A DNA stretch of 64,000 bases from Steroidobacteraceae bacterium (GTDB lineage: Bacteria > Pseudomonadota > Gammaproteobacteria > Steroidobacterales > Steroidobacteraceae): contig DATBKP010000173.1 of the NCBI GenBank assembly GCA_036555785.1, positions 21,299-85,298 on the forward strand, written 5' to 3'. Numbering within the stretch: the stretch's first letter is position 1; every line of letters begins with the position of its first letter. Of the stretch, positions 15,579 to 39,399 are shown in pieces. The notes beneath the pieces were generated by a model. That model did no database searches. It was given only the letters and a program-made list of their open reading frames with translations, and was not told the origin of the DNA. The translations under genes and the position numbers were made by a program.

Positions 15579-15980
15579 TCAGCCGCTGCGCGGCGTCAGG
15601 AACTCGCAGCGGGTCCCTTTGACCTTCGCAAGGCGCTCGTCGAACGTTGCCAACGGCAACTGGAGCGCCTCCGCGAGTGCGACGTACCAGGCGTCGTAGC
15701 TGGTAAGGTTGTGGCGCAACTCCCAGGCGCGCTTGGCGAAGGGCTCGAAGGAGAACAGCTCGACGTTGAGCTGCATCAGGTCTTCGTGCGCCGCGTTCAC
15801 TTCTGCAGTCGCGATCTGCCTGGCCAGCTCGAGCCGGCGCAGGACGTTCGTCGCTTCGGCGAGCGCGAGCTCCGGCGCGTGCAGAGCGCCGCGCGCAACG
15901 ATTGCCCTGGCCCACTCGCCATCCGGCCCTGCATCGATCAGCGCTCTGACGAGCACCGACGCGTCGACGACGGCGCTCAA
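15579..15980 (-). CDS. vapC: PIN-domain toxin, VapC-like
   Basis: N-terminal VVDASVLV with conserved acidic positions. TTG start overlaps the antitoxin stop (TTGA at 15977-15980). Confidence 0.8.
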   Translation of the reverse strand: MSAVVDASVLVRALIDAGPDGEWARAIVARGALHAPELALAEATNVLRRLELARQIATAEVNAAHEDLMQLNVELFSFEPFAKRAWELRHNLTSYDAWYVALAEALQLPLATFDERLAKVKGTRCEFLTPRSG

Positions 15981-16213
15981 CGGCGGTCAGCGTCGCGCGC
16001 TTTCAGGATTTGCGCGGTGGAGACGCGCGTCTGCGACGCGCGCAATCTCTTTCGCACCTGCTCCAGCCACGCCTCCATGGAAGGCCGCGCCGCCATTCGT
16101 TGGAGCTCCATGCGTAGATACTCCTGCATCGACTTTCCCTGTAACGCGGCCCGTGCGGCGAGCTCATCCCGCACCTTCTCGGGCACATCGCGAATCGTGA
16201 TCTGCACAGCCAT
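15977..16213 (-). CDS. vapB: Ribbon-helix-helix antitoxin, FitA/VapB-like
   Basis: MAVQITIRDVPEKVRDELAARAALQGKSMQEYLR is a typical RHH N-terminus. It lies immediately upstream of the PIN gene. Confidence 0.8.
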   Translation of the reverse strand: MAVQITIRDVPEKVRDELAARAALQGKSMQEYLRMELQRMAARPSMEAWLEQVRKRLRASQTRVSTAQILKARDADRR

Positions 16214-25716: not shown

Positions 25717-26496
25717 TTATTCTTCTTGGCGATCTTCGTCTTCACCTTCGCGCCTTGGCGAGACTGTCTTCTCTTCCTCCTTCTTCTCCCCCGCCGCCGG
25801 CATCCCTTTCGGCAGCAGCGTTTCGACGACGACCGTCGGCGCGAAGTAAGAGCGCCGATGGGAATCGCAGGACACTTTCTTGTCGAGCACTTTGACGTCG
25901 AGCTGCTTGAAGACGGTCGGGATCATCTGCTCCAGCAGCTCGCAGTCCTCGGGACGGAGGCGGATGGTGGCGCGTGACAGCGTCACTCGCTTGCGTTGCG
26001 CCGGGAAGATGATCGGGTCGTTGAGCGCGGCGAGCGGATTGCCGGTCACGCGCGACACCAGCTCGCGGCGCGACTTGTCCTTCTCGATTTCCTTCATCAC
26101 GTCCGGCGTGGCCTCGACCGGGAACATGACTTCGATGCGCACGTTGGAGGTCTGCATCCGATCGTCGCGCAGCCGCTCGTAGCGATCGGTCGGCCAGCCG
26201 AAGGGATCCGAGCGTCGCCACGGGGACTCGTCCGGCATCAGGAACAGCTCGCAGTTGCTGACCCGCACCTTGATGTCGTCGCGCGCGCCCAGGTTGAGCA
26301 GGATGGCGCCGACGTGCTGGCGCAGCTGGCCGCAGTCGAGCATGTTCGCGAAGCTGCGGTAGACGAACCGCACTTCGTGCACCTTGTAGACCGCGGCGAC
26401 ATCCTCCTGCGCGGCGGCCGCGCAGCTCGACGCGAGCGCACCGGCGGCGAGCAGCGCCGCCAATGCCTCAATCGAACGGCAGGATCTTCTCCTCAT
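25717..26496 (-). CDS. Secreted Cys-repeat protein, paralog A (two internal C-x26-C / C-x24-C modules, charged tail)
   Basis: Signal-like N-terminus. Clear homology to the 33520-34428 product (EIEKDKSRRELVSRVTGNP...DCELLEQM vs EVERDKSRRALVSRVQGNP...DCELLEQM). The start overlaps the lectin gene 3' end by 29 nt. Confidence 0.7.
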   Translation of the reverse strand: MRRRSCRSIEALAALLAAGALASSCAAAAQEDVAAVYKVHEVRFVYRSFANMLDCGQLRQHVGAILLNLGARDDIKVRVSNCELFLMPDESPWRRSDPFGWPTDRYERLRDDRMQTSNVRIEVMFPVEATPDVMKEIEKDKSRRELVSRVTGNPLAALNDPIIFPAQRKRVTLSRATIRLRPEDCELLEQMIPTVFKQLDVKVLDKKVSCDSHRRSYFAPTVVVETLLPKGMPAAGEKKEEEKTVSPRREGEDEDRQEE

Positions 26497-27946
26497 AGAT
26501 GAACTCGATGTTCGAGCCGCGCATCAGGTGCTCGCCGTTGAAATTCTCGCCGGCGACGTCACGGTAGCGTACGTGCTCGACGGCCCTCAGGAACAGCCTG
26601 ATGTCCAGCGCCGCAAGCCTGTAGGCGCCGCGCTCGTGGGACTTGATCGCGAGATCGAGCAGCACGCGCAGCGCCAGGTGATCGAGCTTCGGCAAGCCGC
26701 CTTTCACTTTCGCCTCGTCGACGGACGCGCGCAGCAGATCGAGCTTGTAGCGCTGCAGATCGATGAAGCTCTGGTGATTGCCTGCCGGGTTGCCGTCGGC
26801 GATCTCGTTGCCCGGTCCCGGATGAATGCGCAGGCCGACGAAATGATACGAGCCGTTGAGCACCTTGCCGCGCGAGCTGCCGCAATCGTAGGTCACTTCG
26901 GTGACCGTGCCGAAGTAGCGACCCGTGCCGCGCGAAGTCTCCAGCATCTCCTGCGGATCCTGCGCCTGCCACGCGACCACGTCGCGGTGCGACGGATCCG
27001 GATCGAATTGCCCGGCCGGGTTCTGGCGCAGCGCGCGACAGCCGAAGAGATTGTTGGGCAGCGCTTGCTCGGTCAGATTCTCGACCTCGATTGCGCCGCT
27101 GAGCACCTGCACGCCGCTGGTGTGAGTCTCGATCACGGTGAAGTCGGGATGACCGCATAGATACGGCGGGATGACGACGGCGCCATTGAACAGCGTCAGC
27201 GGCTGGTTGCCGCAGCGGCTGGGATTGTCGTGAATCGTCGTGACGCGTGCCGTCAGCGTCGCGCCCGGATCGACGACCGCTTCTGGCGGCAGCTGCAACA
27301 CCTGCGCGCCTGTCGGGTTGCACCCCGGACCGTCCGCCGTGCACGTGTCGGCGTCAACGGTGACCGCGCCTTCGCCGTATTCGACGACATAGCCCCACAC
27401 GTTCGGGAACGCACCTTCGTCGTTCCAGCCGAACACGCCGTTGAGTCCGATGGCCAGGTGCTCCTCGGTCGCGCGGTGCAACGAATCCGGGGTCCGGTGC
27501 AGGTTGTTCGGCTCGCCGCTCTGCCAGTTGGTGTACGGCGACGGGCCGTTGGTGGGCGCGATCGACTCGCCGTTGAGCCACATCCAGCCGCAGCCGGGCT
27601 CGGGTGTCGTCGTCGCGCACGGTACCTGGAATCCGCCGACCCACAGCTCAGTGCCGCTGAGCGACGGATGTGGGGCGTTCAGCACCTGCTGACGCAGCTG
27701 ATGCACGAAGGTGTCTTCCGCGGCCGAGCCGATCGTTGCGAGATGACCTTGCACACCCTGGAACGAGCGCTGCTCGGCTGCGGCCTTGGCCGCGTCCCAG
27801 CTGATCTTGTTCGCGATGACGACCTGGTAGTAGTGGCCGTCGAATTGCACCGGCGCCGGCGGCGTGAAGTTCGTCGCGCCCGCCGGCAGCGCGGCGCAGC
27901 CGAGCACCGCGGCAATGACGGAGGGAATCGTTCGGATCGAAGACAT
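26468..27946 (-). CDS. Secreted C-type lectin domain protein (EPN + WND motifs) with ~300-aa uncharacterised C-terminal region
   Basis: ATG at 27946, preceded by GGGGAGAG 5 nt upstream. Signal peptide MSSIRTIPSVIAAVLGCAALPAGA. CTLD landmarks: WDAAKAAAE..GHLATI.S..E..F, WVGG, QSGEPNN (nt 27506-27514), GWNDE (nt 27419-27427). Confidence 0.8.
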   Translation of the reverse strand: MSSIRTIPSVIAAVLGCAALPAGATNFTPPAPVQFDGHYYQVVIANKISWDAAKAAAEQRSFQGVQGHLATIGSAAEDTFVHQLRQQVLNAPHPSLSGTELWVGGFQVPCATTTPEPGCGWMWLNGESIAPTNGPSPYTNWQSGEPNNLHRTPDSLHRATEEHLAIGLNGVFGWNDEGAFPNVWGYVVEYGEGAVTVDADTCTADGPGCNPTGAQVLQLPPEAVVDPGATLTARVTTIHDNPSRCGNQPLTLFNGAVVIPPYLCGHPDFTVIETHTSGVQVLSGAIEVENLTEQALPNNLFGCRALRQNPAGQFDPDPSHRDVVAWQAQDPQEMLETSRGTGRYFGTVTEVTYDCGSSRGKVLNGSYHFVGLRIHPGPGNEIADGNPAGNHQSFIDLQRYKLDLLRASVDEAKVKGGLPKLDHLALRVLLDLAIKSHERGAYRLAALDIRLFLRAVEHVRYRDVAGENFNGEHLMRGSNIEFIYEEKILPFD

Positions 27947-27987: not shown

Positions 27988-30900
27988 TCAGCTGCGCACA
28001 GCCTGTGCCAGGTATTTCGCGGCTTTGTCCGGCCGGCCCGTGCTCTGATACAACCGGCCGAGCCAGCGATCCGAGCTCTTCAGGTAGTAACTCACCGCGC
28101 CGCTGCCGCCGTGGAGCACCGCATGGCTGTCCACGAGCAGCGGCTCGGCCCGATCGAATTGCCTCAGGCCCGCGCGCGCCGCGCCTTCGGCGCTGGCGGC
28201 CGTCGCGGTCCTCCAGTGATCGGCGCCGAGCGATTTCAGAAACAGGGCATGCGCGTCGGTCGCGAGCTGCAGCGCTTCGTCGTAGCGCTGGGTCTCGATC
28301 AGCACGCCGGCGAGCAGCGTCATGGTCGCCGCGGTGTCGGCGTGCTCCGGACCGAGACGCTTGCGGCGCACTTCGAGCGCGTCGCGCAGCAACTTCTCCG
28401 CCGCCGCGAAATCGTTGCGCTCCATCATCCACATCGCGAGATTGCTCATGCCGCGCGCGACCGATGGATGGTCTGCGCCGAGTGCGCGCGTATAGGTGTC
28501 GAGAGCCGCGCGCGACAGCTCGATGGACGTCTTCAGGTCGCCCTTGTCGTGCACGACGAACGCCAGGTTGTTGAGCGTCATCGCAACGTCCGGATGATCC
28601 GCGCCGAGGAGCTTGCGCTGCATCTGCAGCGCACTTTCGTAATACTGCTCCGCCTCGTCGTACTTGCGCTGCTCGTACAGCGCGCCCGCCACGTTGTTGA
28701 GCCCGATCGCGATCTCCGGATGCGAGCTGCCGAGCAGCACGCGCTTCATATCCAGCGCCTCGCGGAACAGCTGCTCGGCTTCGCGGCTCTGGCCGGTCTC
28801 GTCGATCACGAAGCCCAGGTTGTTCAGCGCCTCGGCGAGCGCCGGGTGCGGCCCGTCGTGGATCTCGCGCCGTATCGCCACCGCTTGCCGCAGCAGCTTT
28901 GCGGCGTCCTGATACGAGCCCTGGTCGTAGAGATTCAGCGCCAGACCTTCCAGGCTCTGCGCGACTTCCGCGCTGCGCGCGGGGAACAGCTTCTTGCGCA
29001 GCGCCAGCGCTTCGCGGAACAGCGGTTCGGCCTGGGTGAATTCGCCCCTGCGACCGAGCAGGTCGCCGAGCTCATACACGCTGCGCGCAGTGTCGACGTT
29101 TTCGTTGCCGAGCATCTCGCGACGCATCGCCAGCGCTTCGCGATACATCTGCTCCGCGGGCTCGTACTCGGCCTTGAGCTTGAGCACTTCGCCCAGACGA
29201 TCCAGCGAGCGCGCGACTTCCGGATGCTTTTCACCGTACAGCGCGCGCCGCTTCTCGAGCGCACTGCGCAGCAGCCCCACCGCCTGGTCGTACAGCCCGA
29301 GGCTGGTATAGACGGTGCCCATCGTTTCCATGAGCGTCGCCTGCGTCGCCGGCTGCGTCTTCAGCTCCGTGTCGATGCGCAAGGCGCCCTTGTCCATGAT
29401 CTCGCGGGCAGTGATCGTGTTGCCGCGCGCTTCGCTCGGATCCGCGACGTTGAACAGGTCGATCATGAAGTTCGTCGTCTGCTTCGCGGTCTCGGCCTCG
29501 GTCTCGGCGCTGCGGCGCGCCTGGTTCGCCAGTCCGCGCTGGTGATCGGCGAAGTAAGCGAAGAAGCCCGCGAGAATGGCCAGCGCAGCGATGCCGATCA
29601 CGGCGCCCGTGCGCATCCGCTGGACGCGCCGCTCGCGCGCCATCGAAGCCTGGATGAATCCGGCTTCGTCGGCCGCCAGCTCGATTCCCTGCTCCAGCAG
29701 CGATTCCGCTTCCACCAGCGGCTTGCCCGGCGGCAGCAACAGGTCGTTGCTCTTGTTCTCCGCCGCCCAGCGCTCGGCTGCAGCGGCGATACGCGAGCGC
29801 ACGCGCAGGTTCTCGCGGTTCTGCGCCACCCAATCGGTGACGCGCGGCCAGTGCCAGAGCAACGCTTCGTGCGCGACGGTGACCACGGCGCTGCCGTCAT
29901 CGGCGAGCTCGGTGACGTACAGCCGGTTCTCGACGAATGCGTCGATCAGCACGCGACTCTTGCCGGTGAACCGATCGGACCACGGCGCGCGCTTGCGGCC
30001 GACAGTCTCGTGCCCATCCTGCTCGATGCTCACCAGCGCGTTGAGCACTTTCGGCAGCTCGGCCTCCACGTCGTCCGGCAATTCCTTGAACACCGCTTCG
30101 GCGCGCTGCGCCAGCGAGCCTTCGACGCCGCCGAGCTCGCGGTAGGCCGCGAGCGTCAGCAATCCGTCCTCGGTGCGCCGCTGATAGAGCTCTTCGAGCG
30201 TGAACTGCAGCAGCGGCAGGATCTCGGGTCGCGCGACTGCCGCGTCGCGCAGCATGTCGTCGAGCGACTCGTTGGTGTTCGGATCTTCTTCGAAGCGCAG
30301 ACCGGCCGCGCGCGTCGGCAGCCGGATCATCTGTCCGATCTCGCTCGCGTTCGGCGGCATCAGGTCGTATTGGCCCGCGCCTTCCTTCAGCGCGCTGAGT
30401 TTCGGCAGCGCCGCCAGTCGCGGGTAGAAATCGCTGCGCAGCGTGCAAATGACCCACACTCGGCCGCTGCGTGCGAACGCGTCGACGACCTCGATGAACG
30501 CCTCGCGATGCTCGGGTGTGATGCCCTCGTGCGTGAACATCTCTTCCATCTGGTCGATGACCAGCGCGAGCCGGCCATTCGACTTGTCGCCGCCCGCCTC
30601 GCGCGCGAGCGCATTGCGGACGAGCGCCGTCGCTGCCTGCGGCGACTGGCGCAGCACCTGTGCGAGCTCATCGGCACCCGTGCCGTCGGCGTCGAGCGAG
30701 GGCAGGGCATCCTCCTTCAGCAGCGCCCGCGCGAGACCGGCGAAGATGTCGCCCCGAACGTCGGTTGGCCTGAACACGGCGCGTCGCCAGAACGCGATGC
30801 CTTCGATCACGCCGGGCTTGGTCAGCATCGGCAGCACGCCGGCACGCACGACCGAGGATTTGCCGCCGCCGCTCATGCCGAGGATCAACACGAACGAGCG

Positions 30901-31629
30901 ACCGTCGGCCGCCTGTGCGCGCAGCGCCTGTAGAATGCCGGACACCGCGCGCGTGCGGCCGAAGAAGACCGGAGCGTGCTCGAACTCGAACGCCGCGAGG
31001 CCGCGGAACGGCGAGCCCCTCTTCCAGACATCGCGTGCTTCGGAGGTGCCGGCTGCGCTGCGCGGCAGCTGCCGCTCGATCAGCCGCCGGAGGTGATTCT
31101 CCAGCAGGATCTCGAAATCGCTCGGCGACTCGAACGGATGGAAGGCCGCGACCAGCGTGCCCTCGGTGCGATCGTGGAACCACTTGTCGATGAACTCGTC
31201 GAGCTTCTTCTTCTGCGCCAGCCGCTCCATCAGGTCGCGCTCGTCGTCGAGCCGCACCGACGGCGGCGCAGTGCGCCGATAGACGAGCAGGTCCGGCTTG
31301 CCGTTCTTGCGGAAGCCTTCCATCGCTTCCTCGAACTCGTACTCGGTGCCGGATTCGTAGCGCGAGCCGTCGGCACGCGTGAACTGCGCCGGCAGCGGCG
31401 TGCCCAGGCGCGACCAGACGATGCAGACGACGACGTCCGCCTCGGACGGTTTGACCAGTTGCACCTGGAACGTGGCGGTGGCGACGAGGGGCTCGTGCTC
31501 CCACAGCACGGTTTCGAGAGCGACGCGGCCCATGTACTCGCTTTGCAGCCGCTCGATGACGCGGCCGGCGAGGGCACGCTCCTCGCACACATCGCCGGGC
31601 GAAGAGATGAAGAACTGCAGCTTCCTCAC
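27988..31629 (-). CDS. DUF4062/TIR-like N-terminal domain + nSTAND1-type P-loop NTPase + single TM helix + TPR array
   Basis: N-domain: KLQFFISSPGDVCEER...ADVVVCIVWSRLGTPLP...SGTEYEFEEA. NTPase: PFRGLAAFEFEHAPVFFGR, Walker A GMSGGGKSS (nt ~30853-30879), Walker B LALVIDQMEE (nt ~30541-30570), VAHEALLWHWPRV. TM helix GAVIGIAALAILAGFFAYFA (nt ~29551-29610) follows RERRVQRMR. About 470 aa of TPR follow. The probable start is GTG 31629 (MRKLQFF); the track start TTG 31686 is the alternative. Confidence 0.9.
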   Translation of the reverse strand: MRKLQFFISSPGDVCEERALAGRVIERLQSEYMGRVALETVLWEHEPLVATATFQVQLVKPSEADVVVCIVWSRLGTPLPAQFTRADGSRYESGTEYEFEEAMEGFRKNGKPDLLVYRRTAPPSVRLDDERDLMERLAQKKKLDEFIDKWFHDRTEGTLVAAFHPFESPSDFEILLENHLRRLIERQLPRSAAGTSEARDVWKRGSPFRGLAAFEFEHAPVFFGRTRAVSGILQALRAQAADGRSFVLILGMSGGGKSSVVRAGVLPMLTKPGVIEGIAFWRRAVFRPTDVRGDIFAGLARALLKEDALPSLDADGTGADELAQVLRQSPQAATALVRNALAREAGGDKSNGRLALVIDQMEEMFTHEGITPEHREAFIEVVDAFARSGRVWVICTLRSDFYPRLAALPKLSALKEGAGQYDLMPPNASEIGQMIRLPTRAAGLRFEEDPNTNESLDDMLRDAAVARPEILPLLQFTLEELYQRRTEDGLLTLAAYRELGGVEGSLAQRAEAVFKELPDDVEAELPKVLNALVSIEQDGHETVGRKRAPWSDRFTGKSRVLIDAFVENRLYVTELADDGSAVVTVAHEALLWHWPRVTDWVAQNRENLRVRSRIAAAAERWAAENKSNDLLLPPGKPLVEAESLLEQGIELAADEAGFIQASMARERRVQRMRTGAVIGIAALAILAGFFAYFADHQRGLANQARRSAETEAETAKQTTNFMIDLFNVADPSEARGNTITAREIMDKGALRIDTELKTQPATQATLMETMGTVYTSLGLYDQAVGLLRSALEKRRALYGEKHPEVARSLDRLGEVLKLKAEYEPAEQMYREALAMRREMLGNENVDTARSVYELGDLLGRRGEFTQAEPLFREALALRKKLFPARSAEVAQSLEGLALNLYDQGSYQDAAKLLRQAVAIRREIHDGPHPALAEALNNLGFVIDETGQSREAEQLFREALDMKRVLLGSSHPEIAIGLNNVAGALYEQRKYDEAEQYYESALQMQRKLLGADHPDVAMTLNNLAFVVHDKGDLKTSIELSRAALDTYTRALGADHPSVARGMSNLAMWMMERNDFAAAEKLLRDALEVRRKRLGPEHADTAATMTLLAGVLIETQRYDEALQLATDAHALFLKSLGADHWRTATAASAEGAARAGLRQFDRAEPLLVDSHAVLHGGSGAVSYYLKSSDRWLGRLYQSTGRPDKAAKYLAQAVRS

Positions 31630-31773
31630 GTTTCGCCCTGTGATCGGTATCGCGACAGTGATTCTCGCGCCGGACTGTACTCTCAAAAGTCTTGCTGTGA
31701 AAGCCGTAAATACTTGTAGCGCCTTGCATTATGAACTCACAATGCGCGTCCTCCGTTGTCGGCTTTTTTGACT
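31630..31773. promoter_or_regulatory. Divergent control region between the STAND and SLOG-SLATT genes, locally AT-rich
   Basis: The stretch ctcaaaagtcttgctgtgaaagccgtaaatacttgtagcgccttgcattatgaactcacaatg is far less GC-rich than its surroundings. Possible sigma70-like TTGTAG-N17-TCACAAT on the + strand. Confidence 0.4.
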
Positions 31774-33510
31774 ATGAGCTCACCTTTCGTAATCGGCGTG
31801 TCCGGACATCGCGATCTGCACTCCGGCGCGCTCTCGCAACTCAGCCTCCGGATCGACGAGTTCCTGGCCGACCTGAAGCGGCGCCTGCCCGATACCGAGC
31901 TGCGCATCATGACGGGCATGGCGCAAGGCGCGGATCTGCTGGTGGCGCGAGCGGCGGCGAGGGCCGGATGCAAGGTGGATGCGGTGCTGCCGATGCCGCT
32001 CGAGGAGTACATCGCGGACTTCGACGCGGAGTCGTCGACGGCGCTGCGCGCGTTGCTCGCGGATCCGGCGGTCGCCTGCACGGTACTGCAGCCCCCGCCC
32101 GGATCCGATACGAGTGATGTATCCGGCGCCAGTCGCTCGGCGTTCTATGCGAATCTCACGCACACGCTGACCGCGAAGTGCAATCTGCTGCTCGCACTCT
32201 GGGATGGCCGCACTTCTGCGCTCGAGGGCGGCACGGCGGACACCGTGCTGCGTTATCTCGGCGCGCGCACTCATCACGGCCACAACGAGTCGCAGATCGA
32301 GTTCCAGGCCGCGACTGCCGAGGCGGCCTGGGGTCCGCATTTCGTGTACTGGATTCCAACGCTGCGCAGCGACGGCGCGGCGCTGACGTCAGCTGAGCCA
32401 GCCTACCTGACCGGCATAGGCGAGCATCTGCTGGCCGACCACGGTAGGCAGATGCCGCACGCACTGGCGCTGCAGTTCGTCGAGCTGAGTACCTACAACC
32501 ACGAGTTTGCGCGGCTGAGCGGCAAGCACGCCTTCGCGCGGCTGGACACCTTGTTGCCGACGCTGGGCTCGGTCGACGCCGCGGACGAGCGTGGGGCGCT
32601 GCAGCGGATCGACGCGGAGTACGGCAAAGCGGATGCACTCGCGATCTACTATCAGCGGCACTCCGACCGGCTGTTCCGTGGCTTCAGCTACACGGCGTCA
32701 TGCATGGCGCTGCTGTTCCTGATCTACGCCAAGCTCTGGGCAAACTCCGTGCTGCTATCCGTCTATCTCACGATCCTGCTGCTCAGTGTCGTGGTGTTCC
32801 ATCGCTTGCGCACGCGCCAGTGGTTCTCGAAGCACCTGGTCTATCGCGTGCTGGCCGAGACGATGCGCATCAAGTTCTTCCTGCGCGCCGTCGGCGCCGA
32901 CCGGCTCGTCAGCGCCGCCGAGCTGATCAATCTCACCGGGATCGATCAGTTCACCGGCTTCAGCTGGATCGGCAATCTGCTGAAGAACGTGGAGCCGATC
33001 GACGTGCGCGCACGCAACGGCGAGGCTGTGGAGCGCGCGCGTCTCGCGAACGTGCATCGGCACTGGATCGTCGGTCAGCAGGAATACTTCCGCAGGCGGG
33101 TGCGCGCGCTGGAGCGCGACCATCGACGACTGGAAGTACTAAAGAGTGCGCTGCTCTATGCGATCGCGACGTTCGCGCTGATCCTGCTGGTGTTCGCCAT
33201 CCCGTTGCACGAGCGGCTGCTCGGCGCGGTCACCTGGAAGGACGCGGTGCTGTTCCTGATGGGCCTGCTGCCGGTATGGCTCGGCATCTGGGAGCTCTAC
33301 CAGAACAAGATGGCGATGCGCGAGCTGCTGTGGCAGTACCGCAATCAGCTCGGCCACTTCACCATCGCCGAGCTGCAGCTGTCGCGCGATACGACGGCGG
33401 ACCGTTCACAGGAAATTCTCGCGCAAGTCGGCAAGGAAGCGCTGATGGAGAGCTATCTGTGGACGATCCACCGCTTCCATCGCGAGTACGAGCCGCCGGC
33501 GGCGACGTGA
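31774..33510 (+). CDS. SLOG-like Rossmannoid domain fused to two SLATT/DUF4231-like 2TM modules
   Basis: N-domain: FVIGVSGHRD...RIMTGMAQGADLLVARAAARAG...VLPMP...LLLALWDG..SALEGGTADTV. The first 2TM pair is aa 304-343 (nt ~32683-32802), followed by W..H.VYRVLAETMR. The second pair is aa 457-508 (nt ~33142-33297), preceded by QQEYFRRRVRALERDHRR. ATG at 31774; the track start 31756 is TTG. Confidence 0.8.
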   Translation: MSSPFVIGVSGHRDLHSGALSQLSLRIDEFLADLKRRLPDTELRIMTGMAQGADLLVARAAARAGCKVDAVLPMPLEEYIADFDAESSTALRALLADPAVACTVLQPPPGSDTSDVSGASRSAFYANLTHTLTAKCNLLLALWDGRTSALEGGTADTVLRYLGARTHHGHNESQIEFQAATAEAAWGPHFVYWIPTLRSDGAALTSAEPAYLTGIGEHLLADHGRQMPHALALQFVELSTYNHEFARLSGKHAFARLDTLLPTLGSVDAADERGALQRIDAEYGKADALAIYYQRHSDRLFRGFSYTASCMALLFLIYAKLWANSVLLSVYLTILLLSVVVFHRLRTRQWFSKHLVYRVLAETMRIKFFLRAVGADRLVSAAELINLTGIDQFTGFSWIGNLLKNVEPIDVRARNGEAVERARLANVHRHWIVGQQEYFRRRVRALERDHRRLEVLKSALLYAIATFALILLVFAIPLHERLLGAVTWKDAVLFLMGLLPVWLGIWELYQNKMAMRELLWQYRNQLGHFTIAELQLSRDTTADRSQEILAQVGKEALMESYLWTIHRFHREYEPPAAT

Positions 33511-33519
33511 GCGGATCGC

Positions 33520-34428
33520 TTATTTCGCTTGGGCCTTGCGCTGCGCGGCCTCGTCGGCGCGCTTCTTGGCACGCTGCTCGCCGGGCATGAGATAGCCGAC
33601 CGGCAGCAACGCCTCGACCTTCAGCTGCGGCTTGAACGAACGCGAATCGCACGACAGCGACGAGCTGTTCACCTTGAAGCCGAGCTCGCGGAACACGGTG
33701 CGGGACATCTGCTCGAGCAGCTCGCAATCGAGCGGCTCGAGCTCGATCGTCTCGTGCGACAGGTGGACCTCGCGGCGCTCGGCGGCGAAGAAGATCGGAT
33801 CGTCCATCGCCGTCGACGGATTGCCCTGCACGCGCGAGACCAGTGCACGGCGCGACTTGTCCCGCTCCACTTCGGCGAGGATCTCCGGCGTGATGACGAC
33901 CGGCAGCATGAGCTGGATGTAGACCGGCGTCGTTTGCGACTTGTAACGATCGAACTGGTCGCCGTGGGTCAACGTCTGGCGGCGCGCCATCCGCTGGTCG
34001 ATCGGGCTGCGCATGAGGTCGTTGTTGCTGCCGGTGAAGTCGCCGCCGCCGGGCTGAAACGTGCCCGAGGCGTTCGGGTCCGACCTGCGGGGCGAGCGGG
34101 CATCGGTCACGAACGCATCGCATTCGCGAGCGCTCACCTGGACGTCGTCGCGCGCGCCCAGCTCGCGCAGGATCGTCGCGACGCGATTACGGATCTCGTC
34201 GCACGCCAGGATGCTGTTGGTGCTGCGATAAGTGAAGTTGACTTCGCGCGCCTTCAGCACCGCGGCAAATTGCCCGGGCGGCAATTGCTGGGCCTGCTCC
34301 TGCGTATGCAGCTGCTCTTGCGTGCTCTGCGCAGCCGGATCCTGCTCCTGCGCGCAAAGCGCGCTGCAAATCGCGAGCGAGCCGGTGGCAACCGCGACCA
34401 GCGCGGAGCGGGTGAGTGTGCGAGGCAT
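33520..34428 (-). CDS. Secreted Cys-repeat protein, paralog B
   Basis: ATG at 34428 with signal peptide MPRTLTRSALVAVATGSLAICSALCA. Same two-module Cys pattern as paralog A, a Q-rich N-terminal linker and a basic tail. Confidence 0.75.
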   Translation of the reverse strand: MPRTLTRSALVAVATGSLAICSALCAQEQDPAAQSTQEQLHTQEQAQQLPPGQFAAVLKAREVNFTYRSTNSILACDEIRNRVATILRELGARDDVQVSARECDAFVTDARSPRRSDPNASGTFQPGGGDFTGSNNDLMRSPIDQRMARRQTLTHGDQFDRYKSQTTPVYIQLMLPVVITPEILAEVERDKSRRALVSRVQGNPSTAMDDPIFFAAERREVHLSHETIELEPLDCELLEQMSRTVFRELGFKVNSSSLSCDSRSFKPQLKVEALLPVGYLMPGEQRAKKRADEAAQRKAQAK

Positions 34429-36966: not shown

Positions 36967-39399
36967 ATGGAGTTGCTGACTCTCGCGCGCCGTGCTCGCG
37001 GCGCAATGGTCGTTGCCATCGCCCTGGCGCTCGCCGCCTGCGGCGGCGGCGGCGGTGGCGGCTCGCCGCCTCCAACTTCGAATCCGCCGCCTCCGCCTCC
37101 ACCGCCGCCGCCGCCGACGGTTTCGGTCACGGTGACGCCGGCCACGGTCGAAGAGGGCGACTCGGTGCAAGTCACGTGGTCCAGCAGCGGAGCCGTCCGC
37201 TGCGAGGCGGCCGGTGATGCGGCCTTCAGGGGAATCGGCTGGGCGAGCGGGCCGATCGCCCTGTCAGGCACGGTGACCGCAGGTCCGCTGCGAGCGACGA
37301 CCGACTTCTTCGTATCGTGCGCCACCGCCGCCGATGTGCCGGGCTCGGCGGGCCAGGGCGTCATCGTTGTGCCATCGCCGCCGGTGCTGACCCTGCAGGC
37401 GACTCCTCGAATCGTGCGCGACGGCCAGGCGACGCAACTCACCTGGACCGGCAGCCGGGTTACGGCCTGCGAGGCAGCGTCCAACTGGTCGGGCCCGCGC
37501 CCGACTTCCGGCGCGGAGACGGTCGGGCCGTTTCCGCTGGAGATCACGTACGACTTCAGGATGTCGTGCAAGGACTTGTTCGGCGATCCCGTCGACGCCG
37601 TGGTGTTCGTCGAGTCCCGCAAGGGCGCGAATGCACCGCCGGTTGCGGATGCCGGCCCCGATCGCAGCGAGGGGTCTGCGCATCGCGTCGATCTCAGCAC
37701 TTTCGGCAGCTCCGACGATCACGGCATCGTGTCCTCGATGTGGAGCCAGATCGCCGGGCCGAACGTCACGCTCCAGTTCGGCAACACGCAGCTCGACCGG
37801 AGTTTCACCGCGCCGATCGTCGACACCGACACCGTGCTGACCTTCGCGCTCACGGTGATCGACGACGAGGGACTGGCGAGCGCGCCCGACACGGTCGACA
37901 TCACGATCCTGCCGCTGCCGCCGATCGTGACGATCACCGGCAACGTGTCGTACCAGGAAGTGCCGCACGGTCCTGCCGGCACCGGCCTGGCCTACGGATC
38001 GCAGGATTTCGTGACGCTTCCGGACGTTCTGGTCGAAGTGCTGGATGCGAGCTCGCATACCGTGCTCGCCAGCGGCTCGTTCCCGACGAATTTCGTCTTC
38101 GACGTGCCGAGTGCGACCGATCTGCAGTTGCGTGCCACCGCCCTGACGTCGCGCCAGGCGCCGCAACCGCTGCCGCACTGGCAGATCTCGGTTCGTGACC
38201 TCGATTCGGCCGGCACGCCGATCGGTGACGTCTATTCGTATACGGGACCCGTTTTCAACAGCGGTCCCGGCGGTACGCAGGACTTGCAGATCCCATCGGG
38301 ATGGAGCTTTGGCGGGCAACTGATCGGGCCGCGCGCTGCGGCGCCGTTCGCGATTCTCGGGGCGCTCCGGCCTGCGCTCGATCATGCGCGCTCGACTTCC
38401 ATCGCGCCGCAGCCCGACCTGCCGGAGCTGCTCATCGACTGGTCGCCGAACAACAGCGGCGGCGAAACGTTCTTCCAGGCCGTGCCCGGCGGCACTTCGT
38501 ACATCGTGCTGGCCGGCGAAGCCGACGTCGACACCGATGAGTACGACCCGTCGGTGATCCGGCACGAGTTCGGGCACTTCATCATGTACAGCGTGTCGCG
38601 CGACGACTCGATCGGCGGTGCGCACGCGATCACCGACGCCGTCGATATGCGCGTGGCGGCCAGCGAAGGATTCGCCACGGCGTACGGCGCGCTCGTGTCG
38701 CACGACCCGGCGTACAACGACAGTTTCGGTCTCGGCCAGCGAAGCTCCGGATTCTTCAACCTCTCCTTCGATATCCAGCAGAACGAAGGCTGGTACAACG
38801 AATCGTCGGTGCAGGAGATCATGTGGCAGCTGCAGGACCTGGATCACTTCTGGACCGTGTTGAACGGGCCGCTGCGCAATGGTGATGCCATGGTCAGCCC
38901 GTTCGCGCTGTTTGCGGCGTACCGCGCAATCGAGCCGCTGCGCGCACCCACGGTCGATTTCCTGCTGCAGGAGGAGGGAATCGTCGGTCCGACGATCGAT
39001 GCCTACGGCAGCACCGAGACCAACAACGCGCATTCGATTGCCGTGCTGCCGGTTTACACGCCGATCTCGATCGGCGGCGGGTCGAAGGCAGTGCGCAGTA
39101 CCAACCAGTTCGGCACCGGCAACAAGCTGTCCGTGCACCGCTATCTGCGGCTGAACGTGCCGACAGCCGGTAACGTACGGTTCCGCGCCTCGGCGGCCAT
39201 CGGCCGCGATCCCGACATGCTGGTCTATCGTCGCGGCGTGTCGGTCGGACCGGCTCCGGGTCTCGCGAATGAAGATTTTTCGCTGGTGCTGCAGCCCGGC
39301 GACTACGTCATCGACGTTTACGATTGCGGCAACGCCGAGTGCAACTCGAGCGTGACGCCGGGGCCAGTCGACATCACCGTCACTGTCACGACGAGCTGA
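36967..39399 (+). CDS. Lipoprotein: PKD-like domain + HExxH metalloprotease candidate + pre-peptidase C-terminal (PPC)-like domain
   Basis: Lipobox LALAAC (Cys25, nt 37039-37041). Gly7 and Pro-rich linker. PKD-like NAPPVADAGPDR...LTVIDDEGLASAPDTVDITI. HEFGH at nt 38563-38577. The C-terminal domain looks PPC-like. Confidence 0.85.
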   Translation: MELLTLARRARGAMVVAIALALAACGGGGGGGSPPPTSNPPPPPPPPPPPTVSVTVTPATVEEGDSVQVTWSSSGAVRCEAAGDAAFRGIGWASGPIALSGTVTAGPLRATTDFFVSCATAADVPGSAGQGVIVVPSPPVLTLQATPRIVRDGQATQLTWTGSRVTACEAASNWSGPRPTSGAETVGPFPLEITYDFRMSCKDLFGDPVDAVVFVESRKGANAPPVADAGPDRSEGSAHRVDLSTFGSSDDHGIVSSMWSQIAGPNVTLQFGNTQLDRSFTAPIVDTDTVLTFALTVIDDEGLASAPDTVDITILPLPPIVTITGNVSYQEVPHGPAGTGLAYGSQDFVTLPDVLVEVLDASSHTVLASGSFPTNFVFDVPSATDLQLRATALTSRQAPQPLPHWQISVRDLDSAGTPIGDVYSYTGPVFNSGPGGTQDLQIPSGWSFGGQLIGPRAAAPFAILGALRPALDHARSTSIAPQPDLPELLIDWSPNNSGGETFFQAVPGGTSYIVLAGEADVDTDEYDPSVIRHEFGHFIMYSVSRDDSIGGAHAITDAVDMRVAASEGFATAYGALVSHDPAYNDSFGLGQRSSGFFNLSFDIQQNEGWYNESSVQEIMWQLQDLDHFWTVLNGPLRNGDAMVSPFALFAAYRAIEPLRAPTVDFLLQEEGIVGPTIDAYGSTETNNAHSIAVLPVYTPISIGGGSKAVRSTNQFGTGNKLSVHRYLRLNVPTAGNVRFRASAAIGRDPDMLVYRRGVSVGPAPGLANEDFSLVLQPGDYVIDVYDCGNAECNSSVTPGPVDITVTVTTS
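37042..37116 (+). repeat. In-frame GGC/GGT run (7 Gly codons, 37042-37062) and CCN run (11 Pro codons, 37084-37116)
   Basis: Read directly: ggcggcggcggcggtggcggc and ccgccgcctccgcctccaccgccgccgccgccg. Confidence 0.9.

Follow-up and report, generated by a model that had tools for sequence, protein, structure and literature searches.

A SLOG-like domain fused to two divergent SLATT-like membrane units: a predicted effector of a Thoeris-like signalling module

SLOG sensors and SLATT membrane effectors, both reportedly defined by Burroughs et al. in 2015, are established parts of bacterial nucleotide-signalling immunity. The SLOG domain of ThsA binds 3'-cyclic ADP-ribose (3'cADPR) in type I Thoeris, and in type VII Thoeris the effector that cADPR activates is the SLATT protein ThsH (bioRxiv 10.64898/2025.12.03.692087), and Aravind's group predicted SLATT to be a permeability effector regulated by a nucleotide or ADP-ribose derivative (PMC7159879, PMC9503650). 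The same 2025 preprint includes ‘SLOG and 4TM’ or ‘4TM SLOG’ proteins (4TM, four transmembrane helices) among 29 putative and unverified Thoeris effector types (10.64898/2025.12.03.692087, Tables S1/S2). Within a 64,000-nt stretch of a Steroidobacteraceae genome (contig DATBKP010000173.1; 66% GC; hereafter the window, meaning the whole stretch analysed, to which all coordinates refer), one gene was found to combine both domain types in a single chain, with two unlike SLATT-like units behind a SLOG-like domain. In the literature, no description was found of two SLATT units within one chain, of a TIR–transmembrane (TM)–TPR partner or of a DUF4062–nSTAND1 partner. The protein is here predicted to act as membrane effector in a Thoeris-like nucleotide-signalling module of two or three genes, a reading considered probable.

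The plus-strand open reading frame (ORF) extends over 31756–33510 from a TTG codon, and the ATG at 31774, used in a preliminary description that was made from the sequence without database searches, gives a protein of 578 aa. Third-position GC (GC3) is 0.84, as in genuine genes of this 66% GC window, and together with the hundreds of conserved homologues this identifies the ORF as a real gene. Its parts are as follows.

31774..33510, plus strand: the SLOG-2xSLATT gene, 578 aa from the ATG, alternative TTG start at 31756 (ORF list, GC3, homologues, AlphaFold2 model)
31774..32448, plus strand: N-terminal SLOG-like Rossmannoid domain, aa 1–225 (Foldseek, sub-threshold YAcAr and DprA matches, conserved columns)
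32581..32889, plus strand: SLATT-like unit 1, aa 270–372, with a pre-helix, TM1 (~303–321), TM2 (325–346) and a post-helix bearing YRxLAExxR
33022..33489, plus strand: SLATT-like unit 2, aa 417–572, with a pre-helix bearing W..GQ..YF, TM3 (~455–473), TM4 (488–510) and two C-terminal helices

Kyte-Doolittle hydropathy resolved four hydrophobic segments in two pairs (~309–332 with 319–346, and 453–487 with 490–509). An AlphaFold2 model of the 578-aa protein built on 36 homologues (pLDDT, 84.0; pTM, 0.84) placed an alpha/beta domain at aa 5–222, then a long helix (270–321) continuing into TM1, TM2 (325–346) and a further helix (350–372), and then a second long helix (417–473) continuing into TM3, TM4 (488–513) and two final helices (515–538 and 542–572). 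The two pairs of TM helices that the preliminary description had placed behind a Rossmannoid domain were confirmed by hydropathy and model alike, and the helix-2TM-helix signature that it had assigned to each pair was seen twice, at aa 270–372 and 417–572. The peptides that it had quoted lie where it had placed them, both around the first pair (YGKADALAIYYQRHSDRLFR, aa 283–302; VYRVLAETMRIKFF, aa 356–369) and around the second (QQEYFRRRVRALERDHRRLEV, aa 435–455; ELYQNKMAMRELLWQYR, aa 507–523). The C-terminal helices of unit 2 bear near-invariant ELYQNKMATRELLWQYRNQL and SLMESYLWTIHRYHRE motifs in an alignment of close homologues (A1).

The protein belongs to a large family: 995 homologues scored E ≤ 1e-3, and the best 120 (48–100% identity) come mostly from Steroidobacteraceae metagenome-assembled genomes, lack any Pfam domain and bear the source name ‘hypothetical protein’. 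A profile of the C-terminal half (aa 262–578) matched 2,133 representatives of 50%-identity clusters at E ≤ 1e-3 (896 at E ≤ 1e-10), and since almost all of the full-length representatives listed (~513–614 aa) align over both hairpins in one stretch, the hairpin architecture is not a product of chance. A scan of GTDB with one genome per species returned at least 550 relatives, mostly from Gammaproteobacteria, and the 80 loci kept from that scan represent a distant subfamily from Lysobacterales, Woeseiaceae, Pseudomonadales and others. Mean column identity in A1 is 60% and the C-terminus is near-invariant; eight residues (D287, A290, R358, E362, R365, W431, Y522 and W563) stay invariant when 37 distant members (~25% identity) are included, each of them in a helix that flanks a hairpin or in a C-terminal helix of unit 2. 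Some relatives from Woeseiaceae metagenome-assembled genomes (P0242, 836 aa; L018, 10001–12436; L062, 7162–9582) possess two tandem SLOG domains before the two SLATT units.

The SLATT-like character of the hairpins was apparent in the distant branches of the family. Close homologues gave only scattered weak SLATT matches, and profile tests were performed with 38 aligned members (~25% identity). Distant members are clear homologues of the window protein, both by the C-terminal profile (E 1e-24 to 1e-51) and by tblastn (E ~1e-34 to 1e-43 across ~580 aa). The models matched were as follows.

Pfam DUF4231: 28 of the 38 members, best E 2.3e-7
Pfam SLATT_1: 25 of the 38 members, best E 1.6e-6
Pfam SLATT_3: 21 of the 38 members, best E 1.2e-4
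NCBIfam SLATT_3: 33 of the 38 members, best E 1.5e-6
NCBIfam SLATT_1: 31 of the 38 members, best E 4.8e-10

The next commonest NCBIfam family matched just 3 of the 38 members, and the SLATT signal is for that reason regarded as specific and not as a reflection of generic TM composition. Unit 1 of the distant members consistently aligned to positions 3–88 (of 170) of NCBIfam SLATT_3 and to Pfam DUF4231, and unit 2 to almost the whole SLATT_1 model (~7–129 of 132 positions, E down to 4.8e-10), the matches of both hairpins including the soluble helices. SLATT_1 was matched in two stretches by three of ten members (P0222, P0255 and P0243), and unit 1 gave the best stretch in P0215 and P0243. The two SLATT-like modules of the preliminary description thus hold for the family, through the SLATT_3, DUF4231 and SLATT_1 matches of its distant members, and not for the window protein taken by itself.

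The preliminary description had further proposed that the second module is a duplicate of the first, for which no direct similarity was detectable. Three hhalign comparisons of unit 1 with unit 2, using shallow, merged and distant-only alignments and supplemented by hidden Markov model (HMM) cross-searches, returned non-significant probabilities of 0.25%, 2.2–2.7% and 4.3% (E 0.0095), the alignments being in register and dominated by the TM segments. A recent tandem duplication of the hairpins was rejected on these probabilities. An ancient fusion of two units that have diverged, the first SLATT_3-like and the second SLATT_1-like, is supported at the family level by the profile matches; common ancestry of the two units is suggested indirectly, by both matching SLATT models. 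The family profile returned only noise from PDB sequences (e.g., histamine receptors at E ~1) and no solved SLATT relative, and a Foldseek search with the TM half gave no credible structural match. Like the SLATT effectors of CBASS, type VII Thoeris (ThsH) and DRT10/UG17 (SLATT-5), the window protein would contain helix-2TM-helix modules of a kind thought to breach the membrane upon a nucleotide signal; members of the family match SLATT_1, SLATT_3 and DUF4231 models at scores under the curated cut-offs. Unlike those effectors, described with one SLATT per protein and, for ThsH, predicted to assemble from several protomers, it holds two divergent units and a SLOG domain in one chain. The preliminary description had suggested that such a chain may form a ligand-gated pore with a pseudo-dimeric unit.

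A SLOG-clade fold is accepted for the N-terminal domain on the basis of the structural model. The top solved match in a Foldseek search against the PDB was YpsA (2nx2; E 5.8e-4, probability 1.00, TM-score 0.59 on the target), with further matches to DprA, ShosA, TM1055/LOG and the SLOG domain of ThsA (7uxs), and 3uqz, 5mll and 8zva were among the best for aa 1–220. Sequence identity to the YpsA-, DprA- and ShosA-type matches is 14–18%. Sub-threshold profile matches point the same way: YAcAr (E 3.5e-4, 20.8 bits against a cut-off of 28.2) and DprA (E 0.033, 13.8 bits against 29.6) in Pfam and ShosA (E 0.025) in PADLOC for the window protein, with YAcAr recurring in 25 and DprA (DNA_processg_A) in 30 of 36 close homologues. 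The SLOG-like character proposed in the preliminary description is supported by these structural matches and by the recurrence of YAcAr and DprA among the homologues. Conserved motifs of the domain (GVSGHRD, GMAxGAD, LPMP and LALWDG..GGT; alignments A1 and A3) include three loops, GVSGHRD, GMAxGAD and GGT, that may be counterparts of the nucleotide-binding motifs of SLOG and LOG proteins, and a GxxxGxDxxxA-type loop is presumably common to this domain, YpsA, DprA and ShosA.

These matches bear on an alternative in which the N-terminal domain is an enzyme (a LOG-like nucleotide hydrolase) or a DNA binder (DprA/ShosA-like) and the four TM helices are a mere anchor. The closest solved folds do include LOG enzymes and the DNA-binding DprA and ShosA, DNA_processg_A recurs in most close homologues as above, and the GHRD and GGTxD-like motifs do not vary among members of the close subfamily (A1). 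The acidic residue behind GGT, however, is lost in the distant subfamily (GGTAQVV or GGTGQVV; A3), both hairpins match SLATT effector models down to their soluble helices, and the pairing with TIR genes described below suits a sensor. The idea of a passive anchor is further disfavoured because conservation is strongest in the juxtamembrane and C-terminal SLATT helices and not in the N-terminal domain alone, and the alternative is judged highly improbable. YpsA, DprA and ShosA, although the best structural matches of aa 1–220, are soluble proteins without a membrane module that act on DNA or in cell division. As in ThsA (SIR2-SLOG), where a SLOG domain that reads TIR-made 3'cADPR switches on the effector fused to it, the same logic is proposed for the window protein; the fused effector would here be a four-helix membrane module in place of the soluble SIR2 NADase of ThsA. 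The fold match to ThsA is weak (E 0.26), YpsA and DprA being nearer, and the ThsA models of PADLOC gave no match to the window protein.

The gene is recurrently paired with a signalling-type neighbour. Genes at related loci were called with a GC3 filter and then clustered, and at 45 of the 75 loci where the target gene was called, the SLOG-SLATT gene has a TIR (38 loci) or a DUF4062 (7 loci) protein within four genes; at five further loci a TPR homologue is truncated by the end of the contig. The hint at a partner gene in the preliminary description proved to be its most informative lead. TPR proteins homologous to the partner in the window occur at 42 of 84 loci, and partners are mostly on the same strand as the SLOG-SLATT gene and immediately up- or downstream of it (gaps of −3 to ~80 bp). 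Partners of ~700 aa consist of an N-terminal TIR domain, one TM helix and TPRs; in five that were checked, Pfam TIR_2 scored 44–68 bits (gathering score, 28) and ThsB_TIR matched as well. An SxW[VC]xxE motif is retained in 35 of 41 TIR partners, and presumably marks the site of the catalytic glutamate of TIR NADases. In nearly every partner a single TM helix is predicted to separate the enzyme module from the TPR array, which suggests, from hydropathy alone, that the array is periplasmic.

In the window, the partner is divergent from the SLOG-SLATT gene and is followed by a third gene.

27988..31686, minus strand: partner gene, 1232 aa (ORF list, Pfam, hydropathy)
31069..31626, minus strand: DUF4062 of the partner, aa ~21–206 (E 3.2e-4, N-terminal 225 aa scanned alone)
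29746..31011, minus strand: nSTAND1 NTPase of the partner, aa 226–647 (Pfam E 7.3e-96)
29548..29604, minus strand: single TM helix of the partner, aa 695–713 (one hydrophobic segment)
Minus strand, aa ~776–1232 of the partner: TPR array (Pfam TPR_10/12)
26468..27946, minus strand: third gene, a 492-aa secreted protein (internal start MSSIRT... at 27946)

Several close homologues of the DUF4062 domain carry PF13271. Orthologues of the nSTAND1-TPR partner stand beside SLOG-SLATT genes at six loci (L001, L024, L061, L063, L075 and L085), being full-length and 54–76% identical at four of them (L024, L061, L063 and L075), where the SLOG-SLATT proteins are only 28–30% identical to that of the window and the gene order differs (partner, secreted protein, SLOG-SLATT). 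Independent gene calls with precomputed Pfam annotation for the subfamily of the window itself returned nSTAND1-TPR at L001 and L085 and TIR-TPR at the P0088 locus. Downstream of the partner gene, after a gap of 41 nt, the third gene encodes a protein with a signal-peptide-like N-terminus and a weak C-type-lectin-like match (Lectin_C, E 0.019). Its homologues (cluster 12) occur at the corresponding place in L001, L024 and L061, and in L085 that place is taken by a 494-aa gene without a Pfam match, similar by position and length. An unrelated signal-peptide protein of 700–740 aa without a Pfam match replaces the lectin-like gene between partner and effector in L063 (6147–8258) and L075 (7576–9786). 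A ~134-aa protein (cluster 6; e.g., L005 13902–14297 and 14410–14811) lies near the TIR-TPR/SLOG-SLATT pair in seven Lysobacterales loci (L005, L023, L031, L041, L042, L058 and L067). Upstream of the SLOG-SLATT gene in L086 (2260–4137), the TPR partner is apparently split into ORFs of 301, 190 and 137 aa, which may be a decayed partner.

The related loci resemble ‘SLOG and 4TM’ Thoeris in that a TIR gene adjoins a gene for a SLOG and four-TM protein. They differ in that the 4TM part in the preprint is not called SLATT, and the window differs further in having DUF4062-nSTAND1 instead of TIR in the partner. When the TIR sequences of the ‘4TM SLOG’ systems were compared with the TIRs of the related loci, no close similarity was found, the comparison being of TIRs and not of effectors. 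Given a SLOG head, two SLATT-type hairpins and a TIR-like or STAND neighbour gene, the SLOG-SLATT protein is most likely a membrane-damaging effector, and the fusion of SLATT-like units to SLOG, with the linkage to TIR or DUF4062, fits the nucleotide-signal contexts of SLATT. The roles could also be reversed, with the TIR or DUF4062 partner itself toxic (e.g., through NAD+ depletion) and the SLOG-4TM protein a regulator, sensor or immunity partner. The preprint warns that TIR in unverified configurations may be an NAD+-depleting effector (10.64898/2025.12.03.692087), STAND NTPases with N-terminal effector domains (Avs-like) usually bear their own effector, and the PADLOC candidate-system model PDC-S60 matches the N-terminus of the window partner (E 3.6e-9). 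SLATT, however, is the effector in every studied context, and a SLOG ‘reader’ beside a TIR ‘writer’ is the classic logic of signal and sensor, for which reasons a toxic partner is thought very unlikely.

Under the favoured reading as a membrane effector, the partner would act as a membrane-anchored sensor, built as TIR-TM-TPR in most relatives and as DUF4062-nSTAND1-TM-TPR, followed by the secreted lectin-like protein, in the window. Once triggered, the N-terminal enzyme domain of the partner would produce a small nucleotide-derived messenger, which for the TIR versions would most likely be an NAD+ or ADP-ribose derivative; DUF4062 would be a putative signal-making enzyme. The cytoplasmic SLOG domain would bind the messenger, and the juxtamembrane helices, which are charged and conserved (D287, R358, E362, R365, W431 and Y522), may pass the signal on to the four-helix membrane module of two divergent SLATT units. 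That module would then open or oligomerise, which would permeabilise or depolarise the membrane and arrest growth, in a predicted immune role. In a more speculative form, which is doubtful as a whole, the system would be an ‘outside-in’ relative of Thoeris: a periplasmic TPR receptor and the secreted lectin-like protein would sense envelope damage or ligands, the cytoplasmic TIR, or here a DUF4062 controlled by the STAND NTPase, would be the signal maker (DUF4062 being a new one), and the messenger would gate a single-chain channel of two different SLATT units.

The same outward-facing features are compatible with the main alternative, in which the protein serves a housekeeping pathway of envelope sensing, as a ligand-gated ion channel or a signal transducer, and tunes ion flux or membrane potential without killing. 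Envelope or extracellular cues would be detected by the secreted lectin-like protein together with the TPR array, should the latter be periplasmic; the co-encoded signal-peptide protein conforms to such a pathway, as does the single TM helix predicted in nearly all partners to lie between the TPR array and a cytoplasmic enzyme module. It would also accord with a widespread chromosomal family, with the very strong conservation in A1 and at the C-terminus, and with the scarcity of defence genes nearby. A parallel exists in TRPM2, where an N-terminal SLOG-like MHR1/2 domain binds ADP-ribose and gates the pore of the same chain; the likeness is one of proposed working and not of membership, since TRPM proteins, unlike the window protein, are six-TM tetrameric channels unrelated to SLATT. 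TRPM channels do appear among the fold matches of the model, but at low probability (0.08–0.33) and with a root-mean-square deviation of ~30 Å, and the TPR topology is a reading of hydropathy. Moreover, flanking genes vary even between related loci, a patchy, cassette-like pattern typical of conflict systems, and the pairs of TIR with SLOG or with SLATT characterised so far are abortive-infection systems. A housekeeping channel is accordingly rated unlikely, though less so than either a passive anchor or a toxic partner.

Several observations count against the reading as an immune effector. Two ‘SLOG and 4TM’ systems (from Nitrospira nitrosa and Streptomyces sp. GKU 895) gave no phage defence in E. 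coli (10.64898/2025.12.03.692087, Table S2). For the window protein itself, no SLATT model of Pfam, NCBIfam or PADLOC matched at E ≤ 1 and no profile of any named SLOG family matched above its curated threshold, and in the distant members every SLATT score is under the curated cut-off (NCBIfam, 20–40 bits against 41–45; Pfam, 13–25 against 24.7–26.3). The window has no adjacent TIR protein, the partner bearing DUF4062-nSTAND1 in its place, and an AlphaFold2 model of the DUF4062 domain (pLDDT, 84) returned many generic flavodoxin-like matches; no TIR appeared among the fold matches, in which a 2-deoxyribosyltransferase ranked 17th. Approximately one-third of related loci are without a partner, ~10 of these having flanks of 8–10 kb on both sides, and only a handful of 148 sampled neighbours match PADLOC models (raw count), the surroundings not being obvious defence islands. 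The family is chromosomal and widespread, with no homologues among PLSDB plasmids or INPHARED phages and a single partial match among 2.9 million viral contigs, on which grounds a mobile-element origin was rejected; a tblastn search of plasmids with a SLATT_1-like unit also gave no match.

Fusions of this kind would be expected by specialists, and what is useful here is the size of the family (>2,000 representatives when clustered at 50%, and no fewer than 550 species-level genomes), its missing annotation in Pfam and NCBIfam, the double SLATT and the membrane-anchored partners. If the prediction holds, native-like Gammaproteobacteria (Lysobacter, Luteimonas) would be better test hosts than E. 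coli, and, provided that the ‘4TM SLOG’ effectors belong to this family, it would give a domain-level account of the ‘4TM’ part of an unverified Thoeris configuration. The protein would likewise offer a natural single-chain SLATT pair for studying how SLATT units assemble. DUF4062 might substitute for TIR as signal maker, and the sensor might look outward through a periplasmic TPR array.

The partner and SLOG-SLATT genes are separated by a short region.

31687..31773, no strand: divergent intergenic region, 87 bp (ORF coordinates)

This region is presumed to hold a control region shared by both genes. Its sole consensus promoter-like match is weak and lies on the minus strand (31701–31674), and a promoter and terminator scan of the locus gave nothing usable. 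The first ~20 residues of the partner (31626–31686, minus strand; TTG start) have a pLDDT <50 and are unaligned in homologues, and the true start may be further downstream, which would widen the intergenic region. The three-gene block (lectin-like, nSTAND1-TPR and SLOG-SLATT) is flanked by two paralogous signal-peptide proteins without Pfam matches (25717–26496 and 33520–34428, both minus strand; 42% identity, E 2e-52) and appears to be set between duplicated genes. Elsewhere in the window, two overlapping small ORFs of 133 and 78 aa (15579–16213, minus strand) resemble a PIN-toxin/antitoxin pair by eye, and an 810-aa secreted-looking protein (36967–39399, plus strand) carries, close to the N-terminus, a stretch of glycines and then a long stretch of prolines (GGGGGGGSPPPTSNPPPPPPPPPPPP).

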